NCBI GenBank assembly: GCA_963749405.1
Contig: CAVVMY010000013.1
Coordinates: 1-64,000, forward strand
Origin: Candidatus Altiarchaeales archaeon
GTDB taxonomy: Archaea > Altiarchaeota > Altiarchaeia > IMC4 > QMZM01
DNA: 64,000 bases
Direction of reading: 5' to 3'
Below the pieces are notes generated by a model, which worked only from the letters and a program-made list of their open reading frames with translations, made no database searches and was not told the origin of the DNA. Positions 1-53,523 of this stretch are shown piece after piece. Made by a program: the position numbers and the translations under genes. How positions within the stretch are numbered: the first letter of the stretch is position 1; every line of letters starts with the position of its first letter.

Positions 1-3002
<3,002 letters not shown>

Positions 3003-3003
3003 G

Positions 3004-4823
3004 TTACACCACGTCCTGTAATTTCAGTCTTGGGGCGATGCCCATGCTCTTCATCTCGTCCAGCAGGAGCTTGAACGCGTAACTCATCTCGACCGAGTAG
3101 ATGTCGGTCTCGTTGCCGCAGGCAAGGCAGCGGGTCATGTTGCGCTTGCGGTCGAGCATGGCGACCATGCCGCAGTGGGCGCAGACATATTCGTTCACCT
3201 TGTCCGATTCATCGAGCAGGCGTTCCTTGAGTGCCATGGCGGCGCCGTGGCCGATCATGACATCCCGCTCCATCTCACCGAACCGGAGACCGCCTTCACG
3301 GGCACGGCCTTCGGTCGGCTGGCGGGTCAGGACCTGCACCGGTCCGCGGGACCGGGCGTGCATCTTGGACGAGACCATGTGGTAGAGTTTCTGGTAGTAG
3401 ATCACGCCGATGTAGACATCGGCCTTGAAGACTTTGCCGGTGATGCCGTCATACATGACCTCCCGGCCGTTGTGGGAGAAACCGAGTTTCTTTAAGGATG
3501 CACGGATATCCGCCTCGCTCTCGCCGCCGAATGCGGTGCCGTTGATGCGCCGGCCTTCGAGGGCGCCGACCTTGCCGCCGATCATCTCGAGCATGTGCCC
3601 GATGGTCATACGGCTCGGGATCGCATGGGGGTTGATGACGAGGTCGGGGGTGAGGCCGCTCTCGGTGAAGGGCATGTCTTCCTGGTGGGCGATGAGGCCG
3701 ACGACACCCTTCTGCCCGTGCCGGGACGCGAACTTGTCGCCGACTTCCGGGCACGCGGAGGTCGCGGGTCCGGACTTTCACGAGGCGGGAACTGTTCTCG
3801 CCCTCGGTGATGATGACCGTGTCGACAATGCCGTGCTCGTTGCTGCGCATCGTGACGGAGGTGTCGCGGCGCTTCTCGACCGCAATCAGTTCACCGGACG
3901 GTTCCTCGAGGAACCGCGGCGGGGAGGTCTTGCCGATCAGCACATCCTTCTCTGCGACAACGGTCTCGGGGTTGATCACGCCGTCTTCGTCAAGGTTCTT
4001 GTAGGACTCGGCACCGTGGGCACCGGCAACGTCCTCTTCGGGGACTTCGATCCGGTCGATCTGGCCGCCGGGATACCGGCGCTCTTCGCCTTCGTAGGTC
4101 CTGAAGAAGTGGGAACGGCCGAGGCCGCGCTCGATCGAGGCCTTGTTGAAGATGAGCGCATCTTCAATATTGTAGCCTTCGTACGAGAGGATGGCGACGA
4201 CGAAGTTCTGGCCTGCAGGCCGGTCGTCGGATCCGATCAGTTCCGAGGTCTGGGTGTGGGTGAGCGGTTTCTGCACGTAGTGGAGCAGGTGGCCGCGGGT
4301 GTCGGGGCGGAGCTTCATGTTCGCCGCGCCGAAACCGAGCGCCTGCTTGACCATGCCTGCGCCCATCGTGACACGCGGACTCGCATTGTGCTCGGGGAAC
4401 GGGACGTGTGCCGCACCGATACCGAGGATCAGGGAGGGGTCGATCTCGAGGTGGGTGTGGTCGGGGGTCGCGTTCTCGGGAAGTCCATGGCGATGAGGAG
4501 GTCTTCCTCCTCTTCTGCATCGATGAACTCGATCATGCCGCGCTGGACAAAGGAGGAGATATCGATCTCCTTCTTCGCGAGCTTGCTAGAGGTCCTCGTC
4601 GGTGATCAGGGGCTCGCCGTTTTTCAGGACGATGAGGGGGCGGCGCGCACGGCCGCGGTCGGTCAGGATCACGACATCGCCGTTGTATTCCTTGTGGGAG
4701 ACGTTCACTTCCGGCGAGATCGCTCCCTGCCGGCGCATGCTGCGGATATTGGCGACCAGTGCCTTCGGGTCGTCGACAAGGCCGATGAGGGCACCGTCAA
4801 CAAATACGCGTGACTTTCTTCAT
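3004..4823 (-). CDS. rpoB1: RNA polymerase subunit B' (C-terminal half of split RpoB), with several frameshifts (at start codon homopolymer, ~4366-4800, ~3700-3800)
   Basis: C-terminal ORF 3004..3675 (…[51 protein letters not shown]) and ORF 3449..4366 are RpoB' segments. Another frame at ~4600-4800 gives the B' N-terminus [40 protein letters not shown]. The ATG overlaps the B'' stop (ATGA) at 4821-4825. Confidence 0.85.
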
Positions 4824-5350
4824 CAGACCTCACCCCGGATGTGCTCGACACCAAGGTTATGCAGGATGCGCATGATCTCTTCCTCGTCATCGACACCCTT
4901 GCTGATCTCCACCATCTGGGCAAAGTTCTTGACAAGGCCGCAATTCGGCCCTTCGGGAGTCTCGCTCGGGCAGATCCGGCCCCACTGGGTCGGGTGCAGG
5001 TCACGGGCCTCGAAATGGGGCTGTGAGCGCGAGAGCGGGGAGATCACGCGGCGGAGGTGCGAGAGCACGGCCATGTGGTCGACCCGGTCGAGGAGCTGCG
5101 AGACACCGGTCCTCCCGCCCACCCAGTTGCCGGTAGCAAGCGGGTGGAGCAGGCGTTCGGTGAGCACGTCGGCACGCACTGCGGTCGCGATCGAGAGATC
5201 GCGGTGGCGCATGCTGGCGCGCTCGAGCTGGTACTTGATATCACGGGTGAGCCGGTTGAGCGAGATACGGAAGAGGTCCTCCATCAGGTCGCCCGCAAGT
5301 TTCAGCCTCTTGTTCGAGTAGTGGTCCTTGTCATCGATCCTGCGCCGGCG
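4823..5350 (-). CDS. rpoB2: RNA polymerase subunit B'' C-terminal fragment, 5'-truncated at a sequence breakpoint near 5350
   Basis: ORF 4823..5284 (…GRICPSETPEGPNCGLVKNFAQMVEISKGVDDEEEIMRILHNLGVEHIRGEV). In-frame upstream sequence RRRRIDDKDHYSNKRLKLAGDLMEDLF matches the B'' DDRDHYGNKRLKLAGDL motif and ends at an in-frame stop at ~5351. No B''-like sequence lies beyond that. Confidence 0.8.
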   Translation of the reverse strand, partial: RRRRIDDKDHYSNKRLKLAGDLMEDLFRISLNRLTRDIKYQLERASMRHRDLSIATAVRADVLTERLLHPLATGNWVGGRTGVSQLLDRVDHMAVLSHLRRVISPLSRSQPHFEARDLHPTQWGRICPSETPEGPNCGLVKNFAQMVEISKGVDDEEEIMRILHNLGVEHIRGEV

Positions 5351-5415
5351 TCATAAGCGAACTCGACTCGCAGACAGGGAATGCCCAAGCAGGCTCAACA
5401 AGCGACCTGACGGCG

Positions 5416-6474
5416 TTGAAGACGGTCTTCCAGGACAACGGAATCACTCTCTCAGACTATGCCCGCGTAGAAAAAGGCAGCGGCAAATGGTCGGTCATCG
5501 ACGGGGACAGAAATTACGACATCTACGCAGACGACAAAGGCGGACTAAACGTAATAAACATGGGCTTTGCTTCAGTCTCACTGGCAGAGGACGACTTCAA
5601 AAACGGCCTGCTACAGGTAAAGACCTTCTTCAAAGACCTGCTGATACCCATGTCACCCAATGTAGTAGAAAACAAATCAGCAGCAGACCCGGTCTGTTAC
5701 ACCATGAATATCACATTCAGGAGGCCGTCAATACTATCTGTGGAGGTGTCCCCGAGCGGGTACACGATACCTGCAGGAACACGGGTCACTGCCACCTCTA
5801 AACTCGCACTCTATGACGGAACGCCCCTGCCCAACGAGAAAATATATGTAGACTTGTCAGGGACAAATATATGGGACCTCTCGCCCCAGGGAGTGTACAA
5901 GGACTACATGTTCTCCTACGAGGAGCTAAGCAGCAGCACAGAGCAGCAGGCAAGGCTCAGAGATTATCTTATCAGTCTGGGATATCCAGACATCGCCCAG
6001 GAATTGGACGGAGCTCAATACTCTGCAGACGGCGCAGACAAGATAGAGATAACTACATCAGGTGTTGACCCGACGCTTGAAGCAGTAGACGGCGTATCCC
6101 ACCTCAAGCTCGACAATGGCCAGGACATCATAGTCGGAGTAACCGAAAACTACAACGGCAAACTACTGGTATACGAATCAGAGGAACAGAAAAGCCTCGC
6201 ATATGCGATAACGGACGCAAGCGGCATCGCCAAATACTCATTTATACCTACGGGCAGCACCTCAGTGGGCAATTCCTATCCTGGAGGAAACATATCGTCG
6301 CCTACCCAGGCCAGCGTAGGGATACACACTGTTAGCGTCAAGTCGCCTCTTTTCTCAGGGGAGTTCCTGCTCCTGGCGCTGATACTCGTATTCGGGGTGT
6401 TCTCCTACAAATACTTCGGAAGCAGGAAACTTGACTTCTATTCATGGTGGAGGGACTTCAGAGGCAGAAAATGA
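5416..6474 (+). CDS. Surface/exported protein with C-terminal transmembrane anchor and basic tail (possibly 5'-truncated by the breakpoint)
   Basis: 352-aa ORF ends GEFLLLALILVFGVFSYKYFGSRKLDFYSWWRDFRGRK, a TM plus basic tail of the archaeal C-terminal anchor type. No N-terminal signal peptide is visible and the frame stays open upstream into the rpoB'' remnant. Its stop overlaps the next gene's start (ATGA at 6471-6474). Confidence 0.5.
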   Translation: MKTVFQDNGITLSDYARVEKGSGKWSVIDGDRNYDIYADDKGGLNVINMGFASVSLAEDDFKNGLLQVKTFFKDLLIPMSPNVVENKSAADPVCYTMNITFRRPSILSVEVSPSGYTIPAGTRVTATSKLALYDGTPLPNEKIYVDLSGTNIWDLSPQGVYKDYMFSYEELSSSTEQQARLRDYLISLGYPDIAQELDGAQYSADGADKIEITTSGVDPTLEAVDGVSHLKLDNGQDIIVGVTENYNGKLLVYESEEQKSLAYAITDASGIAKYSFIPTGSTSVGNSYPGGNISSPTQASVGIHTVSVKSPLFSGEFLLLALILVFGVFSYKYFGSRKLDFYSWWRDFRGRK

Positions 6475-7808
6475 AAAACAAAATAATAACATTCCTGGTA
6501 ATAGCATTATTCTTCGCACCCTACATGCCAATACCAACGGTCGCAGCCGCGGACGCGGGAGAGCATGGAAGCACGAACCCCCTGAGCTATTATAACTACC
6601 TGAACAAGGACTGGAACGATTTCAGCGAATTCATGACTGCGGAAAACGCGGAGCATGCAAGACTCATATTGTATCTGCTCGTGCTTGGAATGTATACCTG
6701 GAACGTAACCTCAGACATCCTGCTAAACCTGCAGAACTATGTGCTCCTGAATCCCTCGCCTCTGGAGCCTTCGGTCCTGAACGTGATGAACTTTTTTATT
6801 TTCAACCTGCAGATAGCCTACATACTGGCCATCACAGCAACCGCATTCTACATAATATTCGCATCAACGCACCCCAAGAAACGCGCAAGAGCCAAGGGCA
6901 TGCTGGGAAGACTCATAATCGGAATGCTCCTCGTAAGCATATCCCCCTACCTCATCAATATATTCTTTAATTTCTCCTCAGGGCTCACGGCAACCATACT
7001 GGCCCAGACAGACAGCTCAGTCGCAGCCACGGTCTACACAGACCTGCTATGGAAAACATACTGGCCCAGCGTAGTAATAATAATGGCTCCGATGATAGGA
7101 CACTCGCTGGAATACAACACCCACCATGCGATAGAGCACGGAGTAATGCCCAACCTGGAAACACAATACGCAAAAGAACTCCAGATGGGCACCCCAAGCG
7201 AGCAAAGAGACCTTGCAGTAGAAGACCTGCTGGCCCAGGGGAATCCCGAGGCGATAATATCCGATACGGCAGACCAGATGATGAAAGACCAGCAGAGCCT
7301 CATTAAGAGTAATGCCGAGACAATGGCTCAGTCAACCGTGTGGGGGAAACTTGAGGGTGTACTGGATAGCGGACTTATCAAAATCGAGCCCAAACCTGAG
7401 CAGACCTTTGCATTTCTCATGGCCGAGATAGCGATGATATTTGCCTTGTACGGCTTCCTTGCACTGCGCTTCCTCATGCTCATGATATGGACCATACTGT
7501 TCCCGCTGAGCATATTCCTATCCACCTTCGAGCTCACAAAAGGCGTAGGCAGGAACATGATAGAGCAGACAGTATTCTGGACGATACTGCAGATATTCTA
7601 CGCCGTGAGCATAGACACCATAGCCGTAGGATTCATGATCCTGCCTTCGGGATTCAATTATTTCGGCATTGGCTTGCAGTTCGGGGGATTTGAGGTGTTC
7701 TTCGTCAGTTTCTTTTCCATAGCTGCCGCACTGCTGCTGATGCTGACTCCGATTTTGATGCTCATGCTGTCTCAGAGGTTGACGCAGATGGATTTGAATA
7801 TGGGTTAA
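6471..7808 (+). CDS. Polytopic membrane protein, paralog 1 of 5 (signal peptide, N-terminal ectodomain, ~5-6 TM)
   Basis: MKNKIITFLVIALFFAPYMPIPTVAAADAG signal peptide. Shares motifs with the next four ORFs: IAYILAITATAFYIIFASTHPKKRARAKGMLGRLIIGMLLVSISP and WTILFPLSIFLSTFELTKGVGRNMIEQTVFWTILQIFYAV. Confidence 0.75.
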   Translation: MKNKIITFLVIALFFAPYMPIPTVAAADAGEHGSTNPLSYYNYLNKDWNDFSEFMTAENAEHARLILYLLVLGMYTWNVTSDILLNLQNYVLLNPSPLEPSVLNVMNFFIFNLQIAYILAITATAFYIIFASTHPKKRARAKGMLGRLIIGMLLVSISPYLINIFFNFSSGLTATILAQTDSSVAATVYTDLLWKTYWPSVVIIMAPMIGHSLEYNTHHAIEHGVMPNLETQYAKELQMGTPSEQRDLAVEDLLAQGNPEAIISDTADQMMKDQQSLIKSNAETMAQSTVWGKLEGVLDSGLIKIEPKPEQTFAFLMAEIAMIFALYGFLALRFLMLMIWTILFPLSIFLSTFELTKGVGRNMIEQTVFWTILQIFYAVSIDTIAVGFMILPSGFNYFGIGLQFGGFEVFFVSFFSIAAALLLMLTPILMLMLSQRLTQMDLNMG

Positions 7809-7827
7809 GAGGCATAGACACAAAAAT

Positions 7828-9021
7828 ATGTCAAACAAGAAGATAGTAACCGGGTTTTTGGTATTGGTTGTAGTCTCCTGCACGTTTAGTGCCTATGCTG
7901 CGGAAGAGACAGGGGGTGGAAATATTCTTAGCGGTGTTTTTTCAACCCCGTCTGCGGAAGAGACCTTTTGGTTTGTTAAGAGGAGTTTATATGCCTTCAC
8001 ATCCCTTGACTACAGCAAGGAGGATATGGGGTTCATCGTGAATAATCTGTCAGACCTCATACTGCTGAACCCGGACGCGCAGGGGTCTGAGGTGCAGAAC
8101 GGCCTTGGATTTATCCTGGGGCTTATACAGCCGCTTTATGTCTTATCGATAGCTGCCACCGCCTTTTATCTGATATTCGTGACGGGCTCTCCTTCGGGAA
8201 GGGCGAAGGCTAAGTCTCTTATGAAAGACCTGGTGGTCGGGATGATAATCATATCTCTTTCATCCCTCCTACTGGAAGCACTTCTTAATTTCTCAGCCAC
8301 GGCAACAGATGCGGTTTTAAAACAGACTGACATCTCCGTGGTAACGGATAACCTGCAGATAGTATTCGGCTCTCCGAGTGATAAGTCGGTAACGGACGTA
8401 GCAGTCAACTCCTTGCTGAGCGAGTCATCCATGGGCTTATTGGGCGACTCAACTGCTATGCCGGATTATTTAATGTCCCATTCATGCACCCTGTGCCTTA
8501 TGCATTTGATGGCGACATTTGTTGAAATCGAATTGGGATACTATACCTTCCTTCCGTTCATGCTGATGATATGGGGGCTGGGGGTATACTTTTTCCTGCG
8601 CTTCGCCATGGTGACTCTGTGGCTTATCCTGTTCCCTCTCTCCATACTCCTATACTCTTTTGAGACTACGAAAAGCGTAGGCAGGAACATGCTTGAGCAG
8701 ACGATAATGTGGATATTCATACAGGTATTCAACGCAGTCATCGTGGTGGCAATAGCTCTATGCATAATACAGAGCAAACCCGGTTACATGACCGTTCCGG
8801 CTCTTCCTCAATGGGTATCACAGCCTCTGGCCTCTGGCCTGGTCCAGGCCGTGATGGGGGCAATACCAGTGAGCGCTGTTGGCCCGGCACAGGATGTCAC
8901 TACTCTGATTGCCGGCAAGCTCTCGATGCCGTTGGTAGAGTTCATACCCTTCGTAGGCTGCTTTGTGATGCTTATAGCACCCTTATTCATTATGAGGCTG
9001 TTCAAAGGATTCCTGCCCTGA
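7828..9021 (+). CDS. Polytopic membrane protein, paralog 2 of 5
   Basis: MSNKKIVTGFLVLVVVSCTFSAYAAEE signal peptide. Motifs LYVLSIAATAFYLIFVTGSPSGRAKAKSLMKDLVVGMIIISLSS and WLILFPLSILLYSFETTKSVGRNMLEQTIMWIFIQVFNAV. Confidence 0.75.
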   Translation: MSNKKIVTGFLVLVVVSCTFSAYAAEETGGGNILSGVFSTPSAEETFWFVKRSLYAFTSLDYSKEDMGFIVNNLSDLILLNPDAQGSEVQNGLGFILGLIQPLYVLSIAATAFYLIFVTGSPSGRAKAKSLMKDLVVGMIIISLSSLLLEALLNFSATATDAVLKQTDISVVTDNLQIVFGSPSDKSVTDVAVNSLLSESSMGLLGDSTAMPDYLMSHSCTLCLMHLMATFVEIELGYYTFLPFMLMIWGLGVYFFLRFAMVTLWLILFPLSILLYSFETTKSVGRNMLEQTIMWIFIQVFNAVIVVAIALCIIQSKPGYMTVPALPQWVSQPLASGLVQAVMGAIPVSAVGPAQDVTTLIAGKLSMPLVEFIPFVGCFVMLIAPLFIMRLFKGFLP

Positions 9022-9022
9022 A

Positions 9023-10348
9023 ATGAAAAACAAAAAAATATTCATATTGATGGCCGCAGTCGCGCTAATGATGCTAGCATCAGCCCTGGCAGCGGAAGCC
9101 CAGGATACCTCCGGGGGAACCGGCAGCGGAGGAACACCAGCATTATCTGCGCCTTCAGAAACGCCGGCATTACCCCCCGGCCCAAAACCCCTGGAGCTTC
9201 CACCGGGAGAAAGTCTCCCACAACTCCCATCAGGAGAAAGTTTTCCGCAACTCCCCTCAGGGGAAAAACCGGCTCTTCCGCCGGGCAGCCCACCCGGCTG
9301 GGAAGACCCAATCGCACAAGCGGCTGAAGGAGCTGCCGAAGCAACTGCAAAATATTTCGTCGTCGACGTCGCAGTAAGGCTGATATACCAATACAGCGTA
9401 ATGTATCCCTGGATGCTTACATACGGAGAATCCTTCTCCAACAACTACGAAAAAGCAATACTTGCAAATCCGTCGCTCCTGGACCCCTCATCCGAAGGAT
9501 ACAACCCCCTGATAACAAATGCCATCGCATTCTCCGTAAGAATCATGCTGCCCTTCTACGTCATGGCCATAGTCCTCACAGGCGCTTACATGATATTCAT
9601 TTCCAACTCCCCTGAAGCCCGGGGAGATGCAAAAAACCTCCTTAAAAGGCTAATCATCTCAATGGTCGCATTCTCCATGTCACCCCTCATAGTCGAAACA
9701 ATGCTTGCAACATCCCAAAACATATCATCAGCAATCATAAGCCAAGCCGATCCGACAAACGTAAAGATGGTCCTGGACGGAGGCATATGGGGCTCCTATA
9801 TTATATTCTGCAAACTTGGGATTACAGATCTGGAGATAGCAATCGCTTACTGGACTTCTCTATTTGTCATGGCCTGGCTCCCCTATATGGTGATAGGGAT
9901 GAGGCATATAATGATCACCTTGTTCTGCATGGCATTTCCCGTAGGAATAGCCCTCTACTCCTTTGTCTACTTAAGGAACATAGGCAGAAAGATACTCGAA
10001 CAGACAATAGTCTGGATATACCTGCAGGCATTTATTGCGGTAGCAATAGTCGTCATATCCCTTGGCGCAAGCTACTATTACATACTCCCCCCGGACCAGA
10101 ACCCCAAGCTCACCAACTTCCCAATACCCGCAGTAATGGACAAAGGCGCTCTATCACTTATACAGATGCTCGGCATAAACATCGGAGCAAGCCAGACACC
10201 TGTAACAATACCCGGCTTAGGGGTCGCACCCCCGATGGTATTCGGCATCACCTCAATCCTTTCATACGCAATCGGCGCCATGGCCTACGGACTACTCGTG
10301 GCAGTTCCGTTCATGATGCTGCGGCTGCTGAATAATTTCCTGCCTTAA
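9023..10348 (+). CDS. Polytopic membrane protein, paralog 3 of 5 (with Pro-rich repeat insert after the signal peptide)
   Basis: MKNKKIFILMAAVALMMLASALAAEA signal peptide, then PPGPKPLELPPGESLPQLPSGESFPQLPSGEKPALPPGSPPG. Motifs FYVMAIVLTGAYMIFISNSPEARGDAKNLLKRLIISMVAFSMSP and FCMAFPVGIALYSFVYLRNIGRKILEQTIVWIYLQAFIAV. Start lies 2 nt after the previous stop. Confidence 0.75.
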   Translation: MKNKKIFILMAAVALMMLASALAAEAQDTSGGTGSGGTPALSAPSETPALPPGPKPLELPPGESLPQLPSGESFPQLPSGEKPALPPGSPPGWEDPIAQAAEGAAEATAKYFVVDVAVRLIYQYSVMYPWMLTYGESFSNNYEKAILANPSLLDPSSEGYNPLITNAIAFSVRIMLPFYVMAIVLTGAYMIFISNSPEARGDAKNLLKRLIISMVAFSMSPLIVETMLATSQNISSAIISQADPTNVKMVLDGGIWGSYIIFCKLGITDLEIAIAYWTSLFVMAWLPYMVIGMRHIMITLFCMAFPVGIALYSFVYLRNIGRKILEQTIVWIYLQAFIAVAIVVISLGASYYYILPPDQNPKLTNFPIPAVMDKGALSLIQMLGINIGASQTPVTIPGLGVAPPMVFGITSILSYAIGAMAYGLLVAVPFMMLRLLNNFLP

Positions 10349-10354
10349 GAAAGA

Positions 10355-11410
10355 ATGGAAAAACAAAAACAAAAAATCATAGCATTAATGATAATCGGAA
10401 TGCTGATACTCCTGCCCTGGGTATACGCAGAAGAAGACGACGAGGACACGGAAGACGAGGGAGGGTCATTATCACAGATAGCCGGCGCAGAAACAGTCAA
10501 GCTGTTAGCCAAGGCATGGATAGACGGCGCAGCAGGAGACCTATACGACGTCCTGGCAAAGATCACAGGCCAGCTGCGGGAATACATAACGGCAAATCCG
10601 CCCATGAACGACATAAAGCGGATACAGGCCTTCTTCATAGGACTCATGCAGCCCTTCTTCATACTTGGAATAGTTCTCAGTTCCGCATATCTCCTGCTGT
10701 ACTCGGAATCCCCGAGGGGGAGAGCCAAGTCCAAAGCAGCCCTTGTAAGACTCATATACGCACTCATACTTGTCTCCATATCCCCCCTGATAATATGGCT
10801 GCTTCTGACCTTTTCTTCGAGCCTGACAAATGCGATACTGGACAACACCGACCTCTATTACGCAGGGCAGGTAATATATGTCGGAGCCCATTATATGTTC
10901 AATATGTTCTTCTGGCTAACCATGATACATCGTACCGGAGGAGTAGAACTACTACTGCTCTGGGAAACATTCATGCTAATCATAAACTTTGTAATAGCCA
11001 TGAGATACCTCCTCGTAATACTCTGGTGCGTCATGTTCCCTGTAAGCCTTCTCTTGTTCTCTTTCACACCTACAAAAACCATAGGAAAAAAATTCCTACA
11101 CCAGACATTCCTATGGACATTCGTACAAGTAGGCTGGGCCCTCGCAATCATGCTCATATGCGCATCAGTCAAAGGAATGGACGCAGTAATGCCCGGCTAC
11201 CCCATCGGAAAGATCGGCATCACCTGCATATTCCTGTTCCTTGCAACCCCAAGGGTGGTATTCGGGCTGATGGACTGGCTGAGCCTCGGCGTAGAGGTAG
11301 TGGAGATAGTAAACGCAGCGCCGCTGTCGATGGGCGCGCTCACATTGGACGAGATGAAGGTCGAAAGAGAGGTCATCCTGGAAGAGCCCTCGCTGGAGGG
11401 CGTATTATAA
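10355..11410 (+). CDS. Polytopic membrane protein, paralog 4 of 5
   Basis: MEKQKQKIIALMIIGMLILLPWVYAEEDDEDTEDEGG signal peptide. Motifs FFILGIVLSSAYLLLYSESPRGRAKSKAALVRLIYALILVSISP and WCVMFPVSLLLFSFTPTKTIGKKFLHQTFLWTFVQVGWAL. Confidence 0.75.
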   Translation: MEKQKQKIIALMIIGMLILLPWVYAEEDDEDTEDEGGSLSQIAGAETVKLLAKAWIDGAAGDLYDVLAKITGQLREYITANPPMNDIKRIQAFFIGLMQPFFILGIVLSSAYLLLYSESPRGRAKSKAALVRLIYALILVSISPLIIWLLLTFSSSLTNAILDNTDLYYAGQVIYVGAHYMFNMFFWLTMIHRTGGVELLLLWETFMLIINFVIAMRYLLVILWCVMFPVSLLLFSFTPTKTIGKKFLHQTFLWTFVQVGWALAIMLICASVKGMDAVMPGYPIGKIGITCIFLFLATPRVVFGLMDWLSLGVEVVEIVNAAPLSMGALTLDEMKVEREVILEEPSLEGVL

Positions 11411-11414
11411 GACC

Positions 11415-12677
11415 ATGAAAAAAACAATAAAATACTCCGGCCTAAAGGCCGGAGTATTGCTCTCAAAAGCGGCAGAGATAGGTATGGATAAACCCCTGCC
11501 TCAAAGGCAGGGGTATTCTGCCGCTTTTGTGATAAACAAAAAAACAAGAAAAAAAATCCTGATATCAGCATCAGTAATCCTCGTCATAGCATTGATCATC
11601 AATACTTCGGCGATAATCCCCGCAGCCTTGGCCTTGGCTGCCGAGTACTTCACCGAAAGATACCAAGCGGCATTGCCCGGCGCTGTAGCGATGGAAGCAG
11701 GCCACTGGCTTTCTGCTGCAACTATCCGCATAATATTTGCGTACTTCGTATACTGGGGGTTCTTTTCAAAGTACGCGGACTTATGCAACCATTTGCCTGA
11801 GCTGATACTAATGAATCCCAAGATTATGATAGCAGATGATCGCGGCAACTACTACGGAAATCCGCCCATGGAAGAGCTTGTCGATTCGTTCATCCGCATA
11901 ACCCAGCCGTTTTACGTCTTTGCCATAATGCTGGTCGCATTCTACCTCCTGTTCGTCTCAGGTTCGCCTCTGGGACGGGCCAGGGCAAAGTCCAGCCTGA
12001 TAAGACTGGTCCTCTCAATGGGCGTTATAGTGCTAACCATACCCATCATCCAGCTCTGCCTGGACTTCTCGGAAGTGCTTTCAGGGAGCATCCTGAACAT
12101 GCAGGACATAGCACCCGGCATAGCAGTCCTCCAGGAAGCAGTCTACGGGCTATGGCAGAACTATTTCACCGCAATCGTCTTCAACTACTGGAACTCGGTA
12201 TATCTGCTGATGTTTTCCGCAGTGATGTTCTTCCTGCCATTCGCAATAATTGCGCTGAGATATTTTATGATAATATACTTCACCGCACTCTTCCCGCTGA
12301 CAGTGCTATTCTACGCCTTCTACTTCACCAGAAACATGGGCGGACACATATTCAGAGAAACATTCCGATGGATATTCATCCAGCCGCTCTGGGCCATGAT
12401 ACTCGTGGCAATATCTGCGGCCGCAGTCTCGATGCCCTTCATAAACACCGACGCCACAGCACGCATGGGCTTCGGCCTTGCAGGATTCATAGTGCTTACA
12501 ATAGCGCCCCTCATAGTGGTAAAAGTCATGGACTGGCTCGCAATGCTCATGATAATGCTGACGGCAATAGAATTCCCGGGCATGCACGGCGTAGTAGGCA
12601 TGATAGACGAATTACAAGTAGAAGGTCCGGAAACACAGGAAATAACCCCGCCGCCGCCCATAAGGCCCAGGGCCTAA
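11415..12677 (+). CDS. Polytopic membrane protein, paralog 5 of 5 (true start uncertain; possibly GTG ~11529 downstream of a structured element)
   Basis: Motifs FYVFAIMLVAFYLLFVSGSPLGRARAKSSLIRLVLSMGVIVLTIP and FTALFPLTVLFYAFYFTRNMGGHIFRETFRWIFIQPLWAM. The first ~38 codons of the ORF overlap nested hairpins that recur in a non-coding context at 59028-59174. Confidence 0.7.
   Translation: MKKTIKYSGLKAGVLLSKAAEIGMDKPLPQRQGYSAAFVINKKTRKKILISASVILVIALIINTSAIIPAALALAAEYFTERYQAALPGAVAMEAGHWLSAATIRIIFAYFVYWGFFSKYADLCNHLPELILMNPKIMIADDRGNYYGNPPMEELVDSFIRITQPFYVFAIMLVAFYLLFVSGSPLGRARAKSSLIRLVLSMGVIVLTIPIIQLCLDFSEVLSGSILNMQDIAPGIAVLQEAVYGLWQNYFTAIVFNYWNSVYLLMFSAVMFFLPFAIIALRYFMIIYFTALFPLTVLFYAFYFTRNMGGHIFRETFRWIFIQPLWAMILVAISAAAVSMPFINTDATARMGFGLAGFIVLTIAPLIVVKVMDWLAMLMIMLTAIEFPGMHGVVGMIDELQVEGPETQEITPPPPIRPRA
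11432..11528 (+). ncRNA. Structured intergenic element, copy A (terminal hairpin ATACTCCGGC-loop-GCCGGAGTAT plus outer stem AAAAGCGGCAGA…TCTGCCGCTTTT enclosing inner hairpin CCCCTGCC-TCAAA-GGCAGGGG)
   Basis: Read directly. Same architecture and near-identical first hairpin recur at 59028-59174. Confidence 0.45.
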
Positions 12678-12735
12678 AGTATAATAAATGCAGTATATAT
12701 TCCAGAATATAGTATAATTATGTAAATTAAAAGCA

Positions 12736-14025
12736 ATGGCAGCAATACCCATACAGGAAGAATCCCAGGCCACAATCGAACGCGATAGAGAACAGGAAAA
12801 ATTAATAAGAGTGCAGGGAGGATTCTCCTTAGACCCTCAGACCCTGGCAGTGATAATAGACGCAGCCCTGATAATCTTCTTCCTATTCTTCTACCCACCC
12901 AACCAGCCAGTCTCTTTCCCCTACGGAATCAGCATCCAGCCAAACGTCCTCATACCCCTGCTGACAGTGCTTCTGATAGGCCTGATAATAAACAAATCCA
13001 TAGTCAACTTCATGGAATACGAACGAGGCGTCGTATTCAAATGGGGCAAATTCAACAGGATAGCAGGCCCAGGCTGGGAAATAATATTCCCCCTGATGGA
13101 GCGATACATCAAAGTCGACCTGCGGCTGGAAGTAATAAGCCTGCCGCCCCACGAAGTAGTCACAAAAGACAAGGTACGCTTCCTCGTATCCCCTGAGATA
13201 TTCATGTACGTCTCCAACCCAAAAGACGCCATACTAAACGTGCAGAACTACAAGAAAGCAACAATACAATACGTAACAAGCGCCCTCACCCACACACTGG
13301 GCGACTCGACCTCAGACTACATAGTCGCGCACATGAACGAAATATCCGACACCCTCGGACACTCAGTAGAACACATAACAAACACGCCCGGAAAAGAATG
13401 GGGCATCGTCGTACCCAGAGTCAAACTGGCATTCATCCGCTTCCCGGACGAGGTACAGTCCGCAATGCACAAAAAAGTAGCAAGCGAACAACTGAAACTC
13501 GCAGCCCATGAAAAAGCCGAGGCAATAAAAGTGGAAATAGACGCAATAAGAGAAGCAGGAGGAAAACTCACAGACCCGGCCCTGACATACATGTACCTCG
13601 AATCCCTCGACAAAGTAGCCAAAGGAAAAGCCACAAAAATAGTCCTACCCCTCGAAATATCCAAGATGGCAGAAACCATCACCAGAAGAACCAGCGGAGC
13701 AATAGGAAGCGGAAAACAGGAATTAAACCTGCCACCCGACGTAGTCCAAAGATATGCAGAGATCGCAGACAACTACGACAAAAGGCTCAAGGACATAGAA
13801 GGCAAACTCACAGCCTCCGAAGGAAGAGAGGAGCGCAACCGGATGCTAAGAGACGAATACAGGAGAAAGGAGTTGGAAGACAAAACCGGAAAACCAGAAG
13901 ACTCCGCGGAAAAAGAAGGACCGGAAAATACGGAAAAACCGCAGACAAGCCGGAAAGAAGACAGCGAATTAAAAGAATACAAAGACCGGATACGCGAGAT
14001 AAAGAAGAGAGTAGGCATAGACTAA
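12736..14025 (+). CDS. SPFH/band-7 (stomatin/prohibitin/HflK-C-like) membrane protein with long charged coiled-coil C-terminal tail
   Basis: N-terminal TM segments, then FKWGKFNRIAGPGWEIIFPLMERYIKVDLRLEVISLPPHEVVTKDKVRFLVSPEIFMYVSNPKDAILNVQNYKKATIQYVTSALTHTLGD (SPFH core). E/K/R-rich tail to 429 aa. Confidence 0.8.
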   Translation: MAAIPIQEESQATIERDREQEKLIRVQGGFSLDPQTLAVIIDAALIIFFLFFYPPNQPVSFPYGISIQPNVLIPLLTVLLIGLIINKSIVNFMEYERGVVFKWGKFNRIAGPGWEIIFPLMERYIKVDLRLEVISLPPHEVVTKDKVRFLVSPEIFMYVSNPKDAILNVQNYKKATIQYVTSALTHTLGDSTSDYIVAHMNEISDTLGHSVEHITNTPGKEWGIVVPRVKLAFIRFPDEVQSAMHKKVASEQLKLAAHEKAEAIKVEIDAIREAGGKLTDPALTYMYLESLDKVAKGKATKIVLPLEISKMAETITRRTSGAIGSGKQELNLPPDVVQRYAEIADNYDKRLKDIEGKLTASEGREERNRMLRDEYRRKELEDKTGKPEDSAEKEGPENTEKPQTSRKEDSELKEYKDRIREIKKRVGID

Positions 14026-14030
14026 AAAAA

Positions 14031-14300
14031 ATGGCGGAGAAAATAGACACAGACAACATATACATAGACGAGGAGGAGAACTTTGTCGCAGTGAAGGTGA
14101 ATACGAAACTGTACAGGATACATGCCATAATGAATGCTGCGGATGAGTTCCTGGAGGAATCAAATTTCATAGTGGACGGCGACCCTGACAAGGAGATAAT
14201 AGTCAAATTCGTCCCCAAGAGGCGGTTCAGCCGCCAGCAGCTCGCAGACCTGGCCCATAAGTTCTGCACCCTCCTTGTCACATTCAGCTCAACCCGGTGA
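14031..14300 (+). CDS. Small hypothetical protein (89 aa, acidic)
   Basis: ORF MAEKIDTDNIYIDEEENFVAVKVNTKLYRIHAIMNAADEFLEE..., tightly packed between the SPFH and bPH-like genes. No recognisable motif. Confidence 0.35.
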   Translation: MAEKIDTDNIYIDEEENFVAVKVNTKLYRIHAIMNAADEFLEESNFIVDGDPDKEIIVKFVPKRRFSRQQLADLAHKFCTLLVTFSSTR

Positions 14301-14922
14301 AAAAATGACTTTCCAAGAAGAGATAAAAAAGCTTGACTACAAGGGAATAGGACTCCTGATGGCAATCGCGCTGGTCCTGGGAGTGATATACGGAGCCTTC
14401 TTCATACACAACATGTTTTTTGGGATAGTTGCGATGGTCATAGCAGTATTCGGATGCTATTACGTCATGTCGTCGTTCTTTGAAGAAGAAAAACCAGTCA
14501 GCCTGGAGCCAGGAGAGAAAATGATCCTGCGCACATTGGACCGCGCCTATCTGCTGCTGCCGAAAAAAGGAGGATTTCTCACCACGCAATCGCAGAGAGA
14601 CCTTTCCGTGTACCTTACCAACAGGAGGATATTTGCCAAGAAATCTTCCGGGGAAACGGTATTCGAAAAACCTATAACTGACCTGTCGGGAGTTACGTCT
14701 GAGAAGAGGCTCATGACAAGTTATCTGCGCCTGAGGTATTATTCTGAAGGAAAAGAAAAAGACGTCCTGCTATTCGTCGGGGACAGCGGCATCTGGATAA
14801 AGAGGCTGGGCGAACTGGGCGTGAGAGAAAAAGACGAATTCGAAACAGACAAGGCGGAAAAAGACAAATTCGTGGAAGACTCAAAGAAATTGAAAAACAA
14901 GATAGACCGAAAAACAAAATAG
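14296..14922 (+). CDS. Membrane protein with two TM helices and a bacterial-PH-like (DUF304/YdbT-like) domain; start probably MTFQEE at 14296
   Basis: GIGLLMAIALVLGVIYGAFFIHNMFFGIVAMVIAVFGCYYV TM hairpin, then a ~120-aa beta-rich domain and a K/E tail. ORF 14275 is in the same frame. Confidence 0.45.
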   Translation, partial: GEKMTFQEEIKKLDYKGIGLLMAIALVLGVIYGAFFIHNMFFGIVAMVIAVFGCYYVMSSFFEEEKPVSLEPGEKMILRTLDRAYLLLPKKGGFLTTQSQRDLSVYLTNRRIFAKKSSGETVFEKPITDLSGVTSEKRLMTSYLRLRYYSEGKEKDVLLFVGDSGIWIKRLGELGVREKDEFETDKAEKDKFVEDSKKLKNKIDRKTK

Positions 14923-17957: not shown

Positions 17958-18887
17958 TCATTTCAAAAAGTGTTCATAACCTTTTTTCTCAAAGGGCTGC
18001 CCCTTCCCATCAGATACCAAAACAACGCCTTTTCCTTCAACTACGCCTATCTCGGTCGTATCAATATATCCCTGAATCCTGGCATAATGCTTCCCTGGCA
18101 TGGTATAGACCAACTCATAGTCTCCGCCGCCGTAGAGAGCCAGGTCAAGGGGCGAAATATCCGCCCGCCTGGCAACCCGTCTGGTAGACGCGGATATTGG
18201 AACCCTGTCTGCAAATATTTTCATCCCTGTGCCGCTCATGGTTGCCATGTCATGGACGCACATGGAAAGGCTGTCTGAGGTGTCGGTGAGGGCATTTGCG
18301 TATTTGCCTATGATCCTGCCCTCCTTTACCCTGGCAACAGGCTCAAGCGCTTTCCTGACCGCGCCGCCGGAACCCGGATAATTCAGGCCCTTCAGAAGCA
18401 TATGCACGCCCAAGGAAGCCGCACCCAGGCTGCCGGTTACAGCTACTACGTCGCCTCTCCTGGCGCCGGATCTGGTAACAGGCCTCCTGGTTTTGCCCAA
18501 GCAGAAACCAGCCAAGGTAAGCATATCCGATTCCTTGGTGTCCCCGCCGACGTATTTAGCGCCATATCTGCGGCACTGCTTTTCCGCGGCGCGCAGGACC
18601 CTTTCAAAGACTTGGTATTCGGTTTCCCTCGGCATGCCGCAGGCCATCAAAAACGCAACCGGCTCTGCGCCCATAGCTGCTACGTCGCTTACGTTCACGC
18701 TCACAATGAGGCAGCCGATCTGTTCTGCTGTCATGCCCGGGAGGATGTGTGTTTTTTGGAATATCATGTCCGTTGTGAGCACGAGGTATTCGCCGCCGTG
18801 GGGGATGCATGCTGCGTCATCTCTGACGTCGAGAAAGGAGCCAAGCCTCTTTACTATTTCTTTTTCCCCTAATTCTGATAGTTTCAT
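17958..18887 (-). CDS. thiL: Thiamine-monophosphate kinase (AIR-synthase-related PurM-like family)
   Basis: GEKEIVKRL…DDAACIPHGGEYLVLTTDMIFQKTHI…IVSVNVSDVAAMGAEPVAFLMACGMP, the ThiL N-terminal signature. 309 aa. Confidence 0.65.
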   Translation of the reverse strand: MKLSELGEKEIVKRLGSFLDVRDDAACIPHGGEYLVLTTDMIFQKTHILPGMTAEQIGCLIVSVNVSDVAAMGAEPVAFLMACGMPRETEYQVFERVLRAAEKQCRRYGAKYVGGDTKESDMLTLAGFCLGKTRRPVTRSGARRGDVVAVTGSLGAASLGVHMLLKGLNYPGSGGAVRKALEPVARVKEGRIIGKYANALTDTSDSLSMCVHDMATMSGTGMKIFADRVPISASTRRVARRADISPLDLALYGGGDYELVYTMPGKHYARIQGYIDTTEIGVVEGKGVVLVSDGKGQPFEKKGYEHFLK

Positions 18888-18932
18888 CGCAATTTAACCC
18901 CTTAATCCAAGAATTATTAGTATCGTTAGATA

Positions 18933-20492
18933 ATGAAATTTGATACTAAAGACATCAGGGCCAGAGCAAAGGAAGACTTTGAGAAGACCTGGAACGAAAC
19001 TGCGAGAATGCTGCCTGAGAAAAGCGGAAAGGAATACGTCGGAGGAACTGGCCTGGTCCACCCATTGAATGCATTGATACAGGACGTGCGCAAGATATTC
19101 ATAAGCATAGGCTTTTCAGAAGCAGAGAATCCTTTGTTCGTCCCAGAGGAAGAAGTATACTTGCAATACGGACCAGAGGCTCCTGTCATACTCGACAGAT
19201 GCTACTACCTGGCCGGCCTACCCAGACCCGACATAGGCCTCGGCAAAACAGAGATAGAAAAAATCCACGCCATACACCAGGGGATAAAGACCGAAAAAGT
19301 AAAAGAGATACTCAGAGCCTACCGCGAAGGAACGATAGAAGGCGACAACCTCCTGGAAGAGATGGTCGGGCAATTAGGCATCTCCACAGGTGAAGCTGCA
19401 AAGATACTGGACATATTCCCGCAATTCCGGGGCCTGATCGCAGTCTCAGAAAAGATGACCCTAAGGTCGCACATGACCGCCGGCTGGTTCCCCACACTCA
19501 AAGCGCTCGTAGACAAGGAAGAGATGCCTGTGCGCCTGTTCTCAATCGGCCTGCGTTTCCGCAGGGAGCAGAAGGTTGATGCGACGCATCTGCGAGCCCA
19601 CTACGGCGCATCCTGTGTCATCATGGACCCTGATGTAAGCTTTGAAGCCGGCAAAAATGTCTCGGCAAAGGTGCTTGAGCGCCTAGGTTTCAAGGACATC
19701 AATTACACAAAGAAGAAAGCAACCTCTAATTACTACGCACCGGGCACGGAATACGAGATATTCTCAGGCAACGTGGAGGTCGCAGACTGCGGCATGTACT
19801 CTCCGGTGGCCTTGGCCAATTACGGCATAGAATACCCGGTATTCAACATAGGATTCGGCCTGGAACGCATACTCATGGTAAAGAAAAAGCTTACAGACGT
19901 GCGCGAACTACTATACCCACAGTTCTACAAGCAAGTATCCTACACAGACAAAGAACTCGCAGAACAGGTATCAATAGAGCGCACACCCCAGACCGATGAA
20001 GGAAAAGCACTCGCCCTCAGCATTGCAAAAGCCGCCCGCAAAAACGCGGCTACGCCCTCACCCTGCAAATACGCAGCATACGAAGGAAAACTCCTAGGGA
20101 AAAACATCACAGTCTCAGTACTGGAAAAAGAAGAAGGAACCAAACTACTCGGCCCGGCAGCACTCAACAACATATACGCATACCAGGGAGGACTCTACGG
20201 CCTCCCGGACGACATGAGCGCACTGAAAAAAGACCTGACAGAAGCAAAAGAAAAAGGAGTCCGAGCATCATTCGGCTTCCTTGACGCATTATCCAACCAG
20301 TTCGCAGCCGAAATAGAAAAAGAAGTAGCCGAAGGCAAAACCTCAGGCACATTCTCAGCCAAGATGGCCAAAACACCAGGAGAGATAAACATATCCATAA
20401 CAGATGCCGCCAGAAGATTCATAGGCGGAAAAAACCAGCCGATAGCCCTGAAAGGGCCTGTTTTTATGTCCGTTGAATTTATGCTTAAATAG
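18933..20492 (+). CDS. sepS: O-phosphoserine--tRNA(Cys) ligase (SepRS)
   Basis: 519 aa PheRS-alpha-like class II synthetase with VILDRCYYLAGLPRPDIGLG, TLRSHMTAGWF, HLRAHYGASCVI, SPVALANYGIEYPVFNIGFGLERILMV, LLYPQFY. These match the SepRS family (e.g. MJ1660) from memory. Confidence 0.85.
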   Translation: MKFDTKDIRARAKEDFEKTWNETARMLPEKSGKEYVGGTGLVHPLNALIQDVRKIFISIGFSEAENPLFVPEEEVYLQYGPEAPVILDRCYYLAGLPRPDIGLGKTEIEKIHAIHQGIKTEKVKEILRAYREGTIEGDNLLEEMVGQLGISTGEAAKILDIFPQFRGLIAVSEKMTLRSHMTAGWFPTLKALVDKEEMPVRLFSIGLRFRREQKVDATHLRAHYGASCVIMDPDVSFEAGKNVSAKVLERLGFKDINYTKKKATSNYYAPGTEYEIFSGNVEVADCGMYSPVALANYGIEYPVFNIGFGLERILMVKKKLTDVRELLYPQFYKQVSYTDKELAEQVSIERTPQTDEGKALALSIAKAARKNAATPSPCKYAAYEGKLLGKNITVSVLEKEEGTKLLGPAALNNIYAYQGGLYGLPDDMSALKKDLTEAKEKGVRASFGFLDALSNQFAAEIEKEVAEGKTSGTFSAKMAKTPGEINISITDAARRFIGGKNQPIALKGPVFMSVEFMLK

Positions 20493-20570
20493 GGACAATA
20501 TTTAAATACTTACGTCCTAATATTAAACAATATTCTAAATAGTGGAGTATCCTAAAGTATTATACCAAAG

Positions 20571-21215
20571 ATGAAAACAGTCCTCCAAGTATCCCTCAAC
20601 TCCCTAAACCTGCAGGAAGCACTAAGCATAGCAGAAAAAGCCTCAAACGAGGGAATCACATGGATAGAAGCCGCAAGCACCCTCATAAAAGCAGCAGGAC
20701 TCGCCTCCGTAACAGAAATAAGAAAAAGATACCCCAACGCAACAATAACCGCGGACATGAAGATGATCCGCTCGCCTGAAGAAGTAGCCGCAGCCGCAGA
20801 TGCCGGGGCGAACATAGTGATGTTCTATTCCGAAAGCGACGACGACCTGATACGCAGGTACGTTGAGAAAGCCAAGGAAAAAAACATCGAATTAATGGCT
20901 GACATATACGCCAGCGTTTTCCCTGCAAGAGACGCAAAACGATTCCAAGACCTCGGCGTAAACTACCTCTTCGTAAGGTCCCGGGACCTCAAAGCAGTCG
21001 CATCCGCAGTACAGATACCCGTGGCAGTCCCCATAGGAAGAGATGCGGAAGCTGCGAAAAGAGCTTGTCGAAAACGGGGCAAAGATACTAAACATAAGCG
21101 ATTTCCCAGACACGGAAAGAATAAACGGCATATCAGAAAAAATACCGGAACTGCGGGAAAGCCAAAAACAACCAACCGCGGCCAAGCCGGAAACCATAGC
21201 TGCTACATCCAATAA
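20571..21215 (+). CDS. HPS/KGPDC/OMPDC-family TIM-barrel protein (3-hexulose-6-phosphate synthase-like), divergent; 3' end uncertain (~21100-21215)
   Basis: MKTVLQVSLNSLNLQEALSIAEKAS…ITADMKMIRS…GANIVMFY… aligns to HPS MKLQVALDLVNLEEAL…ADLKTMDAG. Conserved Asp positions read N/S/R here. The ORF tail (RKRGKDTKHKRF…) looks like out-of-frame read-through overlapping the next gene. Confidence 0.5.
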   Translation: MKTVLQVSLNSLNLQEALSIAEKASNEGITWIEAASTLIKAAGLASVTEIRKRYPNATITADMKMIRSPEEVAAAADAGANIVMFYSESDDDLIRRYVEKAKEKNIELMADIYASVFPARDAKRFQDLGVNYLFVRSRDLKAVASAVQIPVAVPIGRDAEAAKRACRKRGKDTKHKRFPRHGKNKRHIRKNTGTAGKPKTTNRGQAGNHSCYIQ

Positions 21216-24200
21216 TTCTACGCCGCAGGCTACCAACACAAGCCAGACGCATGTCCTTTCCGAATTCGAAAGGCTCAACAAGCTGTTCTCGGACCTTGAA
21301 GAAAGACGAAAACTCGAAGAAAACCGAAGGATACTCCTTGAAAAAAAGCTGGAAGACAAAGAAAAAGAATACCAGCAGATGCTGGAAACAGAGCGAAGCA
21401 AGGTAGACGCCGAAATAGCAAAGATCGAAACAGAAAAAGAAGACATCCGCAGATACCGTGAAAAACTTGAAAAAGCCTCCGAAGAAACCGAAAAGCAACG
21501 GATGCGCATAATCGAGGAATGGGGCAGGATAAAACAGGCAGAGATATCATTCGAAGACACCCAAAAGAAAAAGCTCGAAGAATACAATTCCAGAAAAGAG
21601 GAAATATGGAAAAAATGGGAAGACGAGCAGAAAAAGCGATGGATGAACGCCTCAGCAGAGATAGAAGAAGCAAGACAGAAGCTTGCAGCACGCTGGGCCG
21701 ACGTAGAAGACTACTCCGAAAGAGCAGAAAATGCGAAAAAAGAGATAGAAGAACAAAGAGCACTGATCACACAAGACAAGGCGGAAGCCGAAAAGAAACT
21801 GCAGGAAGCGCTGAACCTGCACAAACTGCACGAGAGCAATGCAAAACTCCTGGAAGAAGACAAAAGAGAAACCGAGGAAAAGAAAAAATACATAGAAGAA
21901 CAAAAAAAGTACGTAGACGAGCAAAACGCATCATTCGAAAAAAGATGGGCAGACGCTAAAGCGCAACTGGAAAACAGCCTGGAAGAGCGGGAAAAAAGCC
22001 TGGAAGCCCAAAAACTCATACTAGCCGAGGAAAAACTCCAGATAAAGTCAGAAAAACAAGATGCCGAGAGACTCAAACTGGACGTGAGTGCAGAACTGGA
22101 AAAAGCCCGGAAGCGAGAAGAAGAGGCTGAAAAATTACACAAGAAAATCGCAGAAGAACAAAAAGAAGCAGAGGAGCGAATAGCAAAAGAGCAAAAGAGA
22201 CTAGACGAAAAAGAGAAACAGATAGAAGCAAGAGAAACAGAAGCCGCCAAATCCGCAGACCTAATAGCGAAAGCTGCGAGCATAAAAGAAGAAAAGCTCA
22301 AGGCAGAGGAGGCGGCTGCAAAAGCTGCCCAGAAACTAAAGGAAGCATCCGAAGCCGAGGAAAGAATACGAAAAACAGAAAGAAAAATCGACGAACAGCA
22401 GAGAACAAGAAAACAGGAGCTGCAAGAACTGGAAAAAGAGCGCTGGATGCTCAACGACGAACTCAAAAAGATGGAGAACAGTTGGGCAACGCTCTCAGAG
22501 ATTGAGAAAAAACAGGAAGAAGAAAAGAGAATACTCGACGACATGCGCGCAGAAATAGAGGAACAGAGAAAGAGCATAGAAGAAAAATTCGAAAAACTGG
22601 AGAAAAAAGAAAAAGAACTAAAGGATGCGCAAGAAGCATCCGAAAAAAACCAGCAATACCACCTGGAAGAATACAAAAAGAAAGCAGACGAAGGCTGGGA
22701 ACACTGGGAAGACGAACAGAAAAACAAATGGAAAGACGAATACGCAAAGATTGAAGACGAGAAAAAGAAGCTCGCAGACGAAAAAACAGAACTAAAAGCA
22801 AGAATCGCCCAGATGGAACTGGAATCCTGGAAAACATCCGAAGAATCCCGGAAAATAGAAAAAAGACTGGAAGAAGCAACAGAAAAAGAACGCATAACAG
22901 AAGAAAACCTCAGAAAGATCACAGAAAAAGAGCAGAGCCAAAGAGGCCTCATAGAAGAAATAGAGAAAGAACGCTGGAGGATACACGACGAGCAGCAGAA
23001 GGCGGAAAAAAGCGGGGCGCAGATCCTGGAAATAGAGAAAAGATACGAAAACGACAAAGAATCGATAGCCAGGGACAAGGCATTCATAGAGGAACAGAAA
23101 AAGAAACTCGAAACAGACGAACAGAAACTGAAGGAAGAATGCAGAAAACTCCGGGACGATGCAAACTCGCAATTTTCCGGCCTGCAGGAAGACACGGTCG
23201 TCATAAGCGCTAAATGGGTGGAGATAAAAGACGCGGAAAAAAAGCTGGAAGAAGAAAGAAAAAACGCAGAACAGGAAAGAAAAGACCTGGACGACATCAA
23301 AAAGAGGATCGAAGAAGAAGCCTGCAAGCTGGAAGAGCGGATGATTGACGCAGCCGGGACCGAGGCAAAATACGCAGAGCAGCAGGCGGCGCTCGAGGGG
23401 ATAAGCAGAAAAGAGCAGGAGATAAGAGACTACGAAAAGAAGAAGGAAGAAGAAGCAGCCGCAAGAAAAGAGGAGACTGCGGAAATAGACCGCGAAAGGC
23501 GGAAGCTGAGCGATGAATTAAAAGAGGTAGAATCCAAGCGGGCGCAGATATCGGAAGCCGAAAAAGAACTGGAAGAAGAAAGACGCAGAACGGAAGACGA
23601 AAGAAAGGCTCTCGAAGGAGAAAAACAGAAAAGGAAGCAGGAAACAGAAAACGAAGACTCCGCCAGCATAGAAGAAAGAAAACAGGAACTCATCGGATTA
23701 TCAAATAAGATAGAAGAACAGCAGAAGATAAGAAAAGAGGAAGTAAGAGCCATAGAAATGGAGCGCTGGAGGCTCATAGACGAAGCAAAGAAGATAGAGC
23801 TGCACCAAAACAACATAGCCCGATCAGAGCAGGCATTCACAGAAGAAAAAGCCCGGATTGAAAAAGAGAGAACTGAACTTGCGGAAGAGAAGAAAAAAGT
23901 AAGCGGGCAAAGCGACCTATTGGAGAAAAAACTGGCAGAAATAAAGCTCGCAGAAGAGGAGATCACCAGGAAAAGAGCGTCCCAGGCGGAAGAATTAAAG
24001 AAAAAAGAAGAAGAGCTAATGCAACTGCACGGACAGACTCTTGAAGAAAAAACCAGAAGAAAAGAAGAAGCAGAAAGCATAGAAAAAGAGAGCTGGAAAC
24101 TAATCGACGCACAGAAGAAGCTGGAACTGCGCGAGAAACAAATAAGGGAAGCGGAGAAAAGATTCCTTGAAGAAAAAGAACTGATGGAGAAATCCAAGCA

Positions 24201-53522: not shown

Positions 53523-53523
53523 A

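Follow-up and report, generated by a model that had tools for sequence, protein, structure and literature searches.

Genes and features of the two arms

The window, i.e. the whole stretch of 64,000 nucleotides analysed here, consists of a left arm (1-5348) that carries genes for RNA polymerase subunits on the minus strand and a right arm (5349-64000) that begins inside a plus-strand gene. The features are given below; L002 and L003 denote relatives of the left arm and L001 a contig that corresponds to the right arm.

1-361, minus strand: N-terminal part of a Methanoregulaceae-like rpoA'' (ATG at 361-359), which continues past the left end of the window
365-3002, minus strand: full-length rpoA', 879 codons once repaired, with Pfam Rpb1 domains 1-5 distributed among three ORFs, each in a different frame
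3004-4823, minus strand: full-length rpoB', 604 codons once repaired, with Pfam Rpb2 domains 6 and 7 split
4823-5347, minus strand: C-terminal 174 codons of rpoB'' (residues 348-521 of 521 aa) with Pfam Rpb2 domain 3, and the stop codon at 4823-4825
5346-5348: junction, three bases (cgg) that can be assigned to neither parent sequence in the alignments with L002/L003 and L001
5351-5353, minus strand: TGA that closes the rpoB'' frame, within Altiarchaeota-derived sequence
5349-6474, plus strand: 3' part of a gene, 374 codons and a stop; the product has a hydrophobic C-terminal tail, and no Pfam family was found for it
5349-64000: right arm, Altiarchaeota chromosomal DNA of about 48% GC, assigned by the relatives of Ftr and SepRS and by identity to Logan contigs

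Pfam searches of the left arm revealed Rpb2 domain 3 (rpoB''), Rpb2 domains 6-7 (rpoB') and Rpb1 domains 1-5 (rpoA') in operon order, scattered across many short ORFs in differing frames. The Rpb2 domains 6 and 7 of rpoB' are divided between the ORFs 3004-3675 and 3449-4366. A scan in which each species was represented by a single genome yielded 80 loci related to the left arm. The best match was obtained with L002, the complete chromosome of the Methanoregulaceae MAG OY970361.1, which aligns with window positions 3-5345 (5343 nt, eight gaps) at 94.2% DNA identity, and the next relatives are all Methanoregula. In L002 the operon is made up of rpoH (83 aa), rpoB'' (521 aa), rpoB' (604 aa), rpoA' and rpoA''. 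The left arm resembles this archaeal split-B operon in gene order, in overlapping stop and start codons and in the encoded proteins, which are about 98-99% identical over the C-terminal part of B'', B', A' and the N-terminal part of A''. The segment of rpoB'' at 4823-5347 is free of indels and its product shows 99.4% amino acid identity to residues 348-521 of L002 RpoB''. For RpoA'' of L002, tblastn placed residues 1-32 at 364-269 and residues 27-121 at 285-1 in another frame.

In contrast to the L002 operon, there is no rpoH in the window, and rpoB'' is without its first 347 codons. When the L002 proteins were searched against the 64 kb by tblastn, residues 348-521 of RpoB'' gave the sole match of this protein (window 5347-4826), and no match was obtained anywhere in the 64 kb for residues 1-347 or for RpoH. 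Neither a second rpo copy nor a displaced N-terminal part of rpoB'' was detected elsewhere in the window by this search. The coding identity of rpoB'' on the minus strand ends at 5345-5348, and the TGA at 5351-5353 lies directly upstream of the frame, which reads ...RRRRIDDKDHYSNKRLKLAGDLMEDLF... behind this stop. These results agree with the first-pass annotation in that rpoB'' is cut off mid-gene at about 5350 and that no B''-like sequence exists beyond the break, the re-translated 64 kb being devoid of the N-terminal B'' part. That annotation had reckoned with the absence of roughly 450 B'' codons plus rpoH; rpoH is indeed absent, but the number of codons has to be corrected to 347, as B'' of the relative comprises 521 aa. 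Since the TGA resides within Altiarchaeota sequence, it is, by its position, incidental and no mutation of rpoB''.

The genes of the right arm are tightly packed and intact and include, according to Pfam, those for Ftr, Mch, SepRS, FtsZ and a serpin. A restriction-modification pair and a large histidine kinase of the PAS/GAF type are encoded as well, and three tRNA genes are present. Among named relatives, those closest to Ftr belong to Candidatus Altiarchaeia (78% identity), and the SepRS gene at 18933-20492 has its named relatives exclusively in Candidatus Altiarchaeota or Altiarchaeales. From the relatives of Ftr and SepRS it follows that the arms belong to different archaeal phyla. An assignment of the right arm to a lower-GC methanogen of the Methanomicrobiales, considered on account of its Mch and Ftr genes, was dropped in view of these same relatives of Ftr and SepRS.

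The base composition switches at the same place. In 1-kb bins, the GC content is 0.62-0.635 for positions 1-5000 and 0.40-0.53 for positions 6001-64000, and for the left arm as a whole it is 0.626, as compared to 0.455-0.503 for the individual 5.3-kb chunks of the right arm. At a resolution of 100 nt, the drop starts at about 5250-5350, and values of about 0.45-0.52 are reached by 5500-5700. A fall in GC at about 5350 had been described correctly in the first-pass annotation, and its right-hand value of about 45% needs to be raised to the approximately 48% given above. In the tetranucleotide comparison suggested there, the usage of the left arm is uncorrelated with the right-arm mean (r = -0.04), whereas r ranges from 0.71 to 0.90 when the right arm is cut into ten chunks of 5.3 kb and these are compared with one another; with the rpo region of L002 the left arm correlates at r = 0.98 and with the L002 flanks at r = 0.85. 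Judged from homology and composition, the two arms are thereby shown to come from different organisms.

The join and the unbroken plus-strand gene

The Logan assembly of run ERR11596056 is an independent assembly, whose run may or may not be the source of the deposited contig itself; a literature search found no publication on this run accession. Three of its contigs correspond to window positions 5349-9270, 12054-14235 and 18162-21063 at 100.000% identity, so that 9006 nt of the right arm can be compared with 0 mismatches and 0 gaps. The first of these contigs, L001, covers 5349-9270 and reaches 747 nt further upstream. In these 747 nt the plus-strand ORF goes on (...SVAQGKAADVISELDSQTG...) in place of rpoB'', and L001 positions 1-747 have no match within the 64-kb window. 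The gene in L001 is open over at least 623 codons, up to and including the hydrophobic C-terminal tail. In the window it is cut at exactly 5349 and at least 249 N-terminal codons are gone, while its frame extends into antisense rpoB'' and lacks a start codon. This truncation of the plus-strand gene at its 5' side, exactly at 5349, had been overlooked in the first-pass annotation.

Homology of the left arm to L002 and L003 stops at 5345, and from 5349 onwards the match to L001 is 100%. The join is thus blunt, with 0-3 nt of overlap, and the native sequences have no common k-mer there. As a result, rpoB'' and the plus-strand gene are joined head to head, each without its 5' part, and both taxonomy (Methanoregulaceae to Altiarchaeota) and composition change within 3 nt. 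No direct or inverted repeat, mobile element, integrase, IS, att site or target-site duplication was found at the join, and neither promoter-like nor terminator-like sites were found in 5000-5700. The tRNA gene nearest to the join is located at 29509, and IS200-like copies at 31.5 and 34.5 kb are also far away from it. The join contains no Ns. The junction 30-mer (5335-5364) had 0 exact matches in JGI metagenome contigs, and the same applies to a left-arm 31-mer adjacent to the join. Exact protein look-ups with the left-arm ORF 2130-3002 and several right-arm ORFs gave either no record or Logan contigs alone.

Lesions in the rpo genes

For a count of lesions, the left arm was aligned with 25 relatives that are 79.5-94% identical to it. 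Seven private frameshifting indel events (five insertions and two deletions) were found together with two private in-frame stops:

290, minus strand: 1-nt insertion in rpoA'', causing a frameshift
after 1967 and after 2164, minus strand: 1-nt deletions in rpoA'
3752 (C), 4481-4482 (TT), 4585 (C) and 4813 (T), minus strand: insertions in rpoB', from the alignment with the 25 relatives
1790-1792, minus strand: TAG in rpoA', where relatives including L002 have TAC
4586-4588, minus strand: TAG in rpoB', where the closest relative, L002, has CAG

None of these frameshifts and stops, which the first-pass annotation had overlooked to the left of the break, occurs in any of the 25 relatives, L002 included. 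The relatives themselves display 0-3 private indel columns each, the non-zero values stemming almost all from MAGs labelled MFD, and the Illumina-derived relatives have zero private frameshifting indels. After removal of the indels and reversion of the stops, the frames for RpoB' (604 aa) and RpoA' (879 aa) are open throughout, and no exact match to either repaired protein was present in the protein collection searched.

Substitutions give a different picture from that of the indels. At 1228 invariant codons, the left arm has 0 private amino acid changes, the two stops aside, as compared to 3-131 private amino acid states per relative, and the private nucleotide states in the left arm number just 2, both of them the stop-creating changes. 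From L002 the left arm differs in 293 codons, 261 of them synonymously and 32 non-synonymously, which is, by this codon comparison, the pattern of a functional gene. Nine lesions in the 5348 nt of the left arm are to be set against 0 differences over the 9006 nt for which the right arm could be checked, and with an even spread over these 14.35 kb the binomial probability that all 9 would fall into the left arm by chance is about 1e-4. As the lesions are confined to the left arm, the arms would differ in consensus quality, i.e. in read support. Nearly all lesions are small indels, insertions outnumber deletions and a substitution load is missing, a pattern that suggests a long-read consensus with poor support and its errors, and not a pseudogene in decay.

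Both private substitutions create a TAG inside CTAG, which random error would hardly lead one to expect, and of the seven indels five lie outside homopolymer runs; for these two peculiarities we offer no explanation beyond a noisy consensus. A recoding of amber codons, considered for the in-frame TAGs, is out, since 7 frameshifts are present in the same genes and the relatives use sense codons instead (in L002, CAG and TAC).

Origin of the join

Could the join reflect a biological event? Its blunt ends, which share no repeat, would fit illegitimate recombination, and since Methanoregulaceae and Altiarchaeota plausibly share anoxic habitats, a Methanoregulaceae fragment might recently have been integrated into the surface-protein gene of an Altiarchaeota genome, in a minor subpopulation or a single cell; the deposited contig does, after all, contain the join. 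If so, a few long reads would have captured the event, and DNA uptake across phyla would have been caught directly in an uncultured archaeon; even then the indels would be consensus errors, in this case due to the low coverage of a rare variant. We consider a genuine integration very unlikely, as the gene is unbroken at 100% identity in the ERR11596056 assembly, the junction 30-mer is missing from the JGI metagenome contigs, none of the usual traces (integrase, IS, att site, target-site duplication) is seen at the join and the other half of the disrupted plus-strand gene is not within the window. Moreover, a variant represented by one or a few reads is indistinguishable from a library chimera, which is a priori far commoner. 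The idea that the left arm is a degraded second (xenologous) rpo copy, i.e. a fragment of an operon acquired long ago and decaying as a pseudogene in Altiarchaeota, draws on the seven frameshifts, the two stops and the 5'-truncated rpoB'', which at first sight do resemble a pseudogene. Neutral decay is expected to yield many more substitutions than indels, but in the left arm the seven indels are accompanied by just two private nucleotide states and, at the 1228 invariant codons, by no private amino acid substitution. Its five insertions and two deletions are also the opposite of the deletion bias reportedly seen in prokaryotic pseudogenes, its composition is still fully Methanoregulaceae-like (r = 0.98 to the rpo genes of L002) and displays no amelioration, and the adjoining 9 kb do not differ at a single position from the lineage in which the gene is unbroken, so that there was no time for nine lesions to build up. 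Of the explanations discussed here, we therefore give decay of an old copy the lowest probability, close to nil.

A technical origin other than long-read sequencing or assembly was considered as well. Chimeric contigs arise in short-read metagenome assemblies too, and a de Bruijn graph or a scaffolding step could have led to a misjoin via a repeat common to both genomes. Such a join needs a shared repeat, and its absence disfavours an origin from a de Bruijn or k-mer graph: there is no common k-mer where the one sequence ends (5345) and the other starts (5349), nor are there Ns. In addition, 1.3 indels per kb would be abnormal for a short-read consensus, the Illumina-derived relatives being without private frameshifting indels. 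A short-read misjoin is thus highly improbable, slightly more so than the recent integration and less so than the decaying copy. With genomic islands and pseudogenised xenologues the window has in common a foreign base composition beside native DNA and disrupted reading frames. Unlike these, it shows neither integration machinery nor repeats nor a tRNA target, it is devoid of substitution load, deletion bias and amelioration, and the uninterrupted native allele occurs at 100% identity in an independent Logan assembly.

In our judgement, the window very probably originates from a chimeric contig, that is, from an artefactual misjoin in sequencing or assembly and not from a biological event. The indel type of the errors and the blunt join suggest that the chimera probably came from a long-read assembly. 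Positions 1-5348 would then be a poor, indel-ridden consensus of a Methanoregulaceae rpoB'' (3' part)-rpoB'-rpoA'-rpoA'' region and positions 5349-64000 Altiarchaeota DNA with an accurate consensus. The join itself would have been made by a chimeric long read or by a misjoin of a long-read assembler, and the lesions in the left arm would be consensus errors owing to very low read support. We infer that this locus says nothing about how rpoB'' looks in living cells and that the break is not a real genomic feature. Among the readings offered in the first-pass annotation, the assembly chimera is thus retained, whereas an integration or recombination junction and a degraded xenologous rpo copy are judged unlikely; the term "binning chimera", also used there, is not applicable to a join that sits inside one contig.

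The long-read assemblers metaFlye, metaMDBG and hifiasm-meta are documented to produce inter-phylum chimeric contigs, which can be recognised by abrupt changes of GC, coverage and gene-level taxonomy, and also indels that lack read support (Trigodet et al., bioRxiv 10.1101/2025.04.22.649783). The present case is similar to those of Trigodet et al. in having one breakpoint within a contig, a shift in GC and taxonomy, ORF-breaking indels and partners from different phyla. The mode of diagnosis differs, as Trigodet et al. relied on read clipping and coverage, whereas here L001 and comparative sequence analysis were employed. A chimera can therefore be diagnosed without reads, from an independent assembly, from private indels weighed against substitutions and from the truncation of both genes at the join.

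The break as such has no biological significance, and the practical value of its analysis lies in the quality control of a public MAG. The deposited contig, presumably binned as an Altiarchaeota MAG, includes a minimum of 5.3 kb that stem from Methanoregulaceae and in which the rpoB and rpoA genes are broken, and the left arm may extend beyond these 5.3 kb in the contig. Partial proteins of the kind that gene calling would yield with a contig end at either end of the window had no exact match on record. Taken at face value, the contig would contaminate marker phylogenies of Altiarchaeota based on RpoB and RpoA and would suggest a false horizontal transfer or a false pseudogenisation of an essential gene. 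Spurious truncated proteins in databases are another consequence, and the frameshifted ORFs of the left arm are already on record, exclusively from the deposited contig of 103,484 nt (NCBI, ENA); right-arm proteins are on record from Logan too, besides the deposited contig.

Private substitutions and indels in the left arm and its references

Only two private nucleotide substitutions, that is, states seen in one sequence alone when compared with 25 relatives, were encountered in the 5.3-kb left arm (window 1-5348), and each of them creates a TAG stop within a CTAG tetranucleotide:

1790-1792 and 4586-4588, minus strand, private TAG stops (TAC to TAG and CAG to TAG)

At the first of these sites, the relative has CTCCAG. 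The CTAG context of both substitutions is odd under random error, and a systematic basecalling error at a putative modified motif is conceivable.

In the Methanoregulaceae MAG OY970361.1, the closest reference for the left arm, rpoA' is broken into two ORFs by one private single-base insertion (at about 14334-14461 of its locus L002). The same 5.3-kb region contains one to three private indel columns in other MFD-labelled MAGs, and most non-MFD relatives have either no private indel or a single 3-base, in-frame one. From these counts, the background indel rate in the references is therefore roughly ten times below that of the left arm of the window.

Predicted secreted proteins and other genes of the right arm

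In the Altiarchaeota arm (window 5349-64000), the truncated surface-protein gene is followed by a run of five genes, and further features are encoded beyond it:

6444-12677, plus strand, five successive genes (454, 397, 441, 351 and 420 aa), none of them assigned to a Pfam family
18933-20492, plus strand, O-phosphoseryl-tRNA synthetase (SepRS) gene
21043-24546, plus strand, Glu/Lys-rich protein of 1167 aa (E 264, K 183) without a Pfam family
29509-29584, tRNA-Cys gene
52146-54465, plus strand, gene for a protein with an Mrr-type restriction endonuclease domain, then an N6/N4 DNA methylase gene

The start regions of all five genes of the run are A-rich and alike, and most of the encoded proteins have an N-terminal hydrophobic, signal-like segment. 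These genes look like a cluster of predicted secreted or membrane proteins and are possibly paralogous to each other. In the case of SepRS, Pfam detects nothing more than a class II PheRS-like core, and it is the homologues that identify the gene as such. Together with the tRNA-Cys gene, it is consistent with this Altiarchaeota lineage using the indirect route to Cys-tRNA. The 1167-aa protein has a coiled-coil-like composition, and the extreme AT skew of its region (0.6-0.7) is due to the Glu/Lys-rich sequence encoded there. The endonuclease/methylase gene pair sits in a 40% GC patch and probably represents a restriction-modification island.

Two candidate gene-model problems are found in 55447-57186 (plus strand). 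ORF 55706-56482, which is overlapped by the upstream ORF 55447-55905, matches DUF362 with a ferredoxin insert from profile position 46 onward only, and the nickel-insertion (LarC-like) domain of ORF 56023-57186 spans just positions 1-232 of the 375 in its profile. In both cases, either the short form is genuine or the right-arm sequence carries a frameshift.

IS200-like repeat pair

31551-32115 and 34496-35060, two direct repeats of 565 nt, 100% identical to each other

Both copies carry the gene of an IS200-like Y1 transposase, with a Pfam match to Y1_Tnp at E = 2.5e-34. The 2.4-kb segment between the copies is low in GC (about 40-46%) and contains a minus-strand ORF that overlaps degenerate short DNA repeats (33426-34427). 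The pair and the enclosed segment are either arranged like a composite transposon or the product of an erroneous duplication during assembly.
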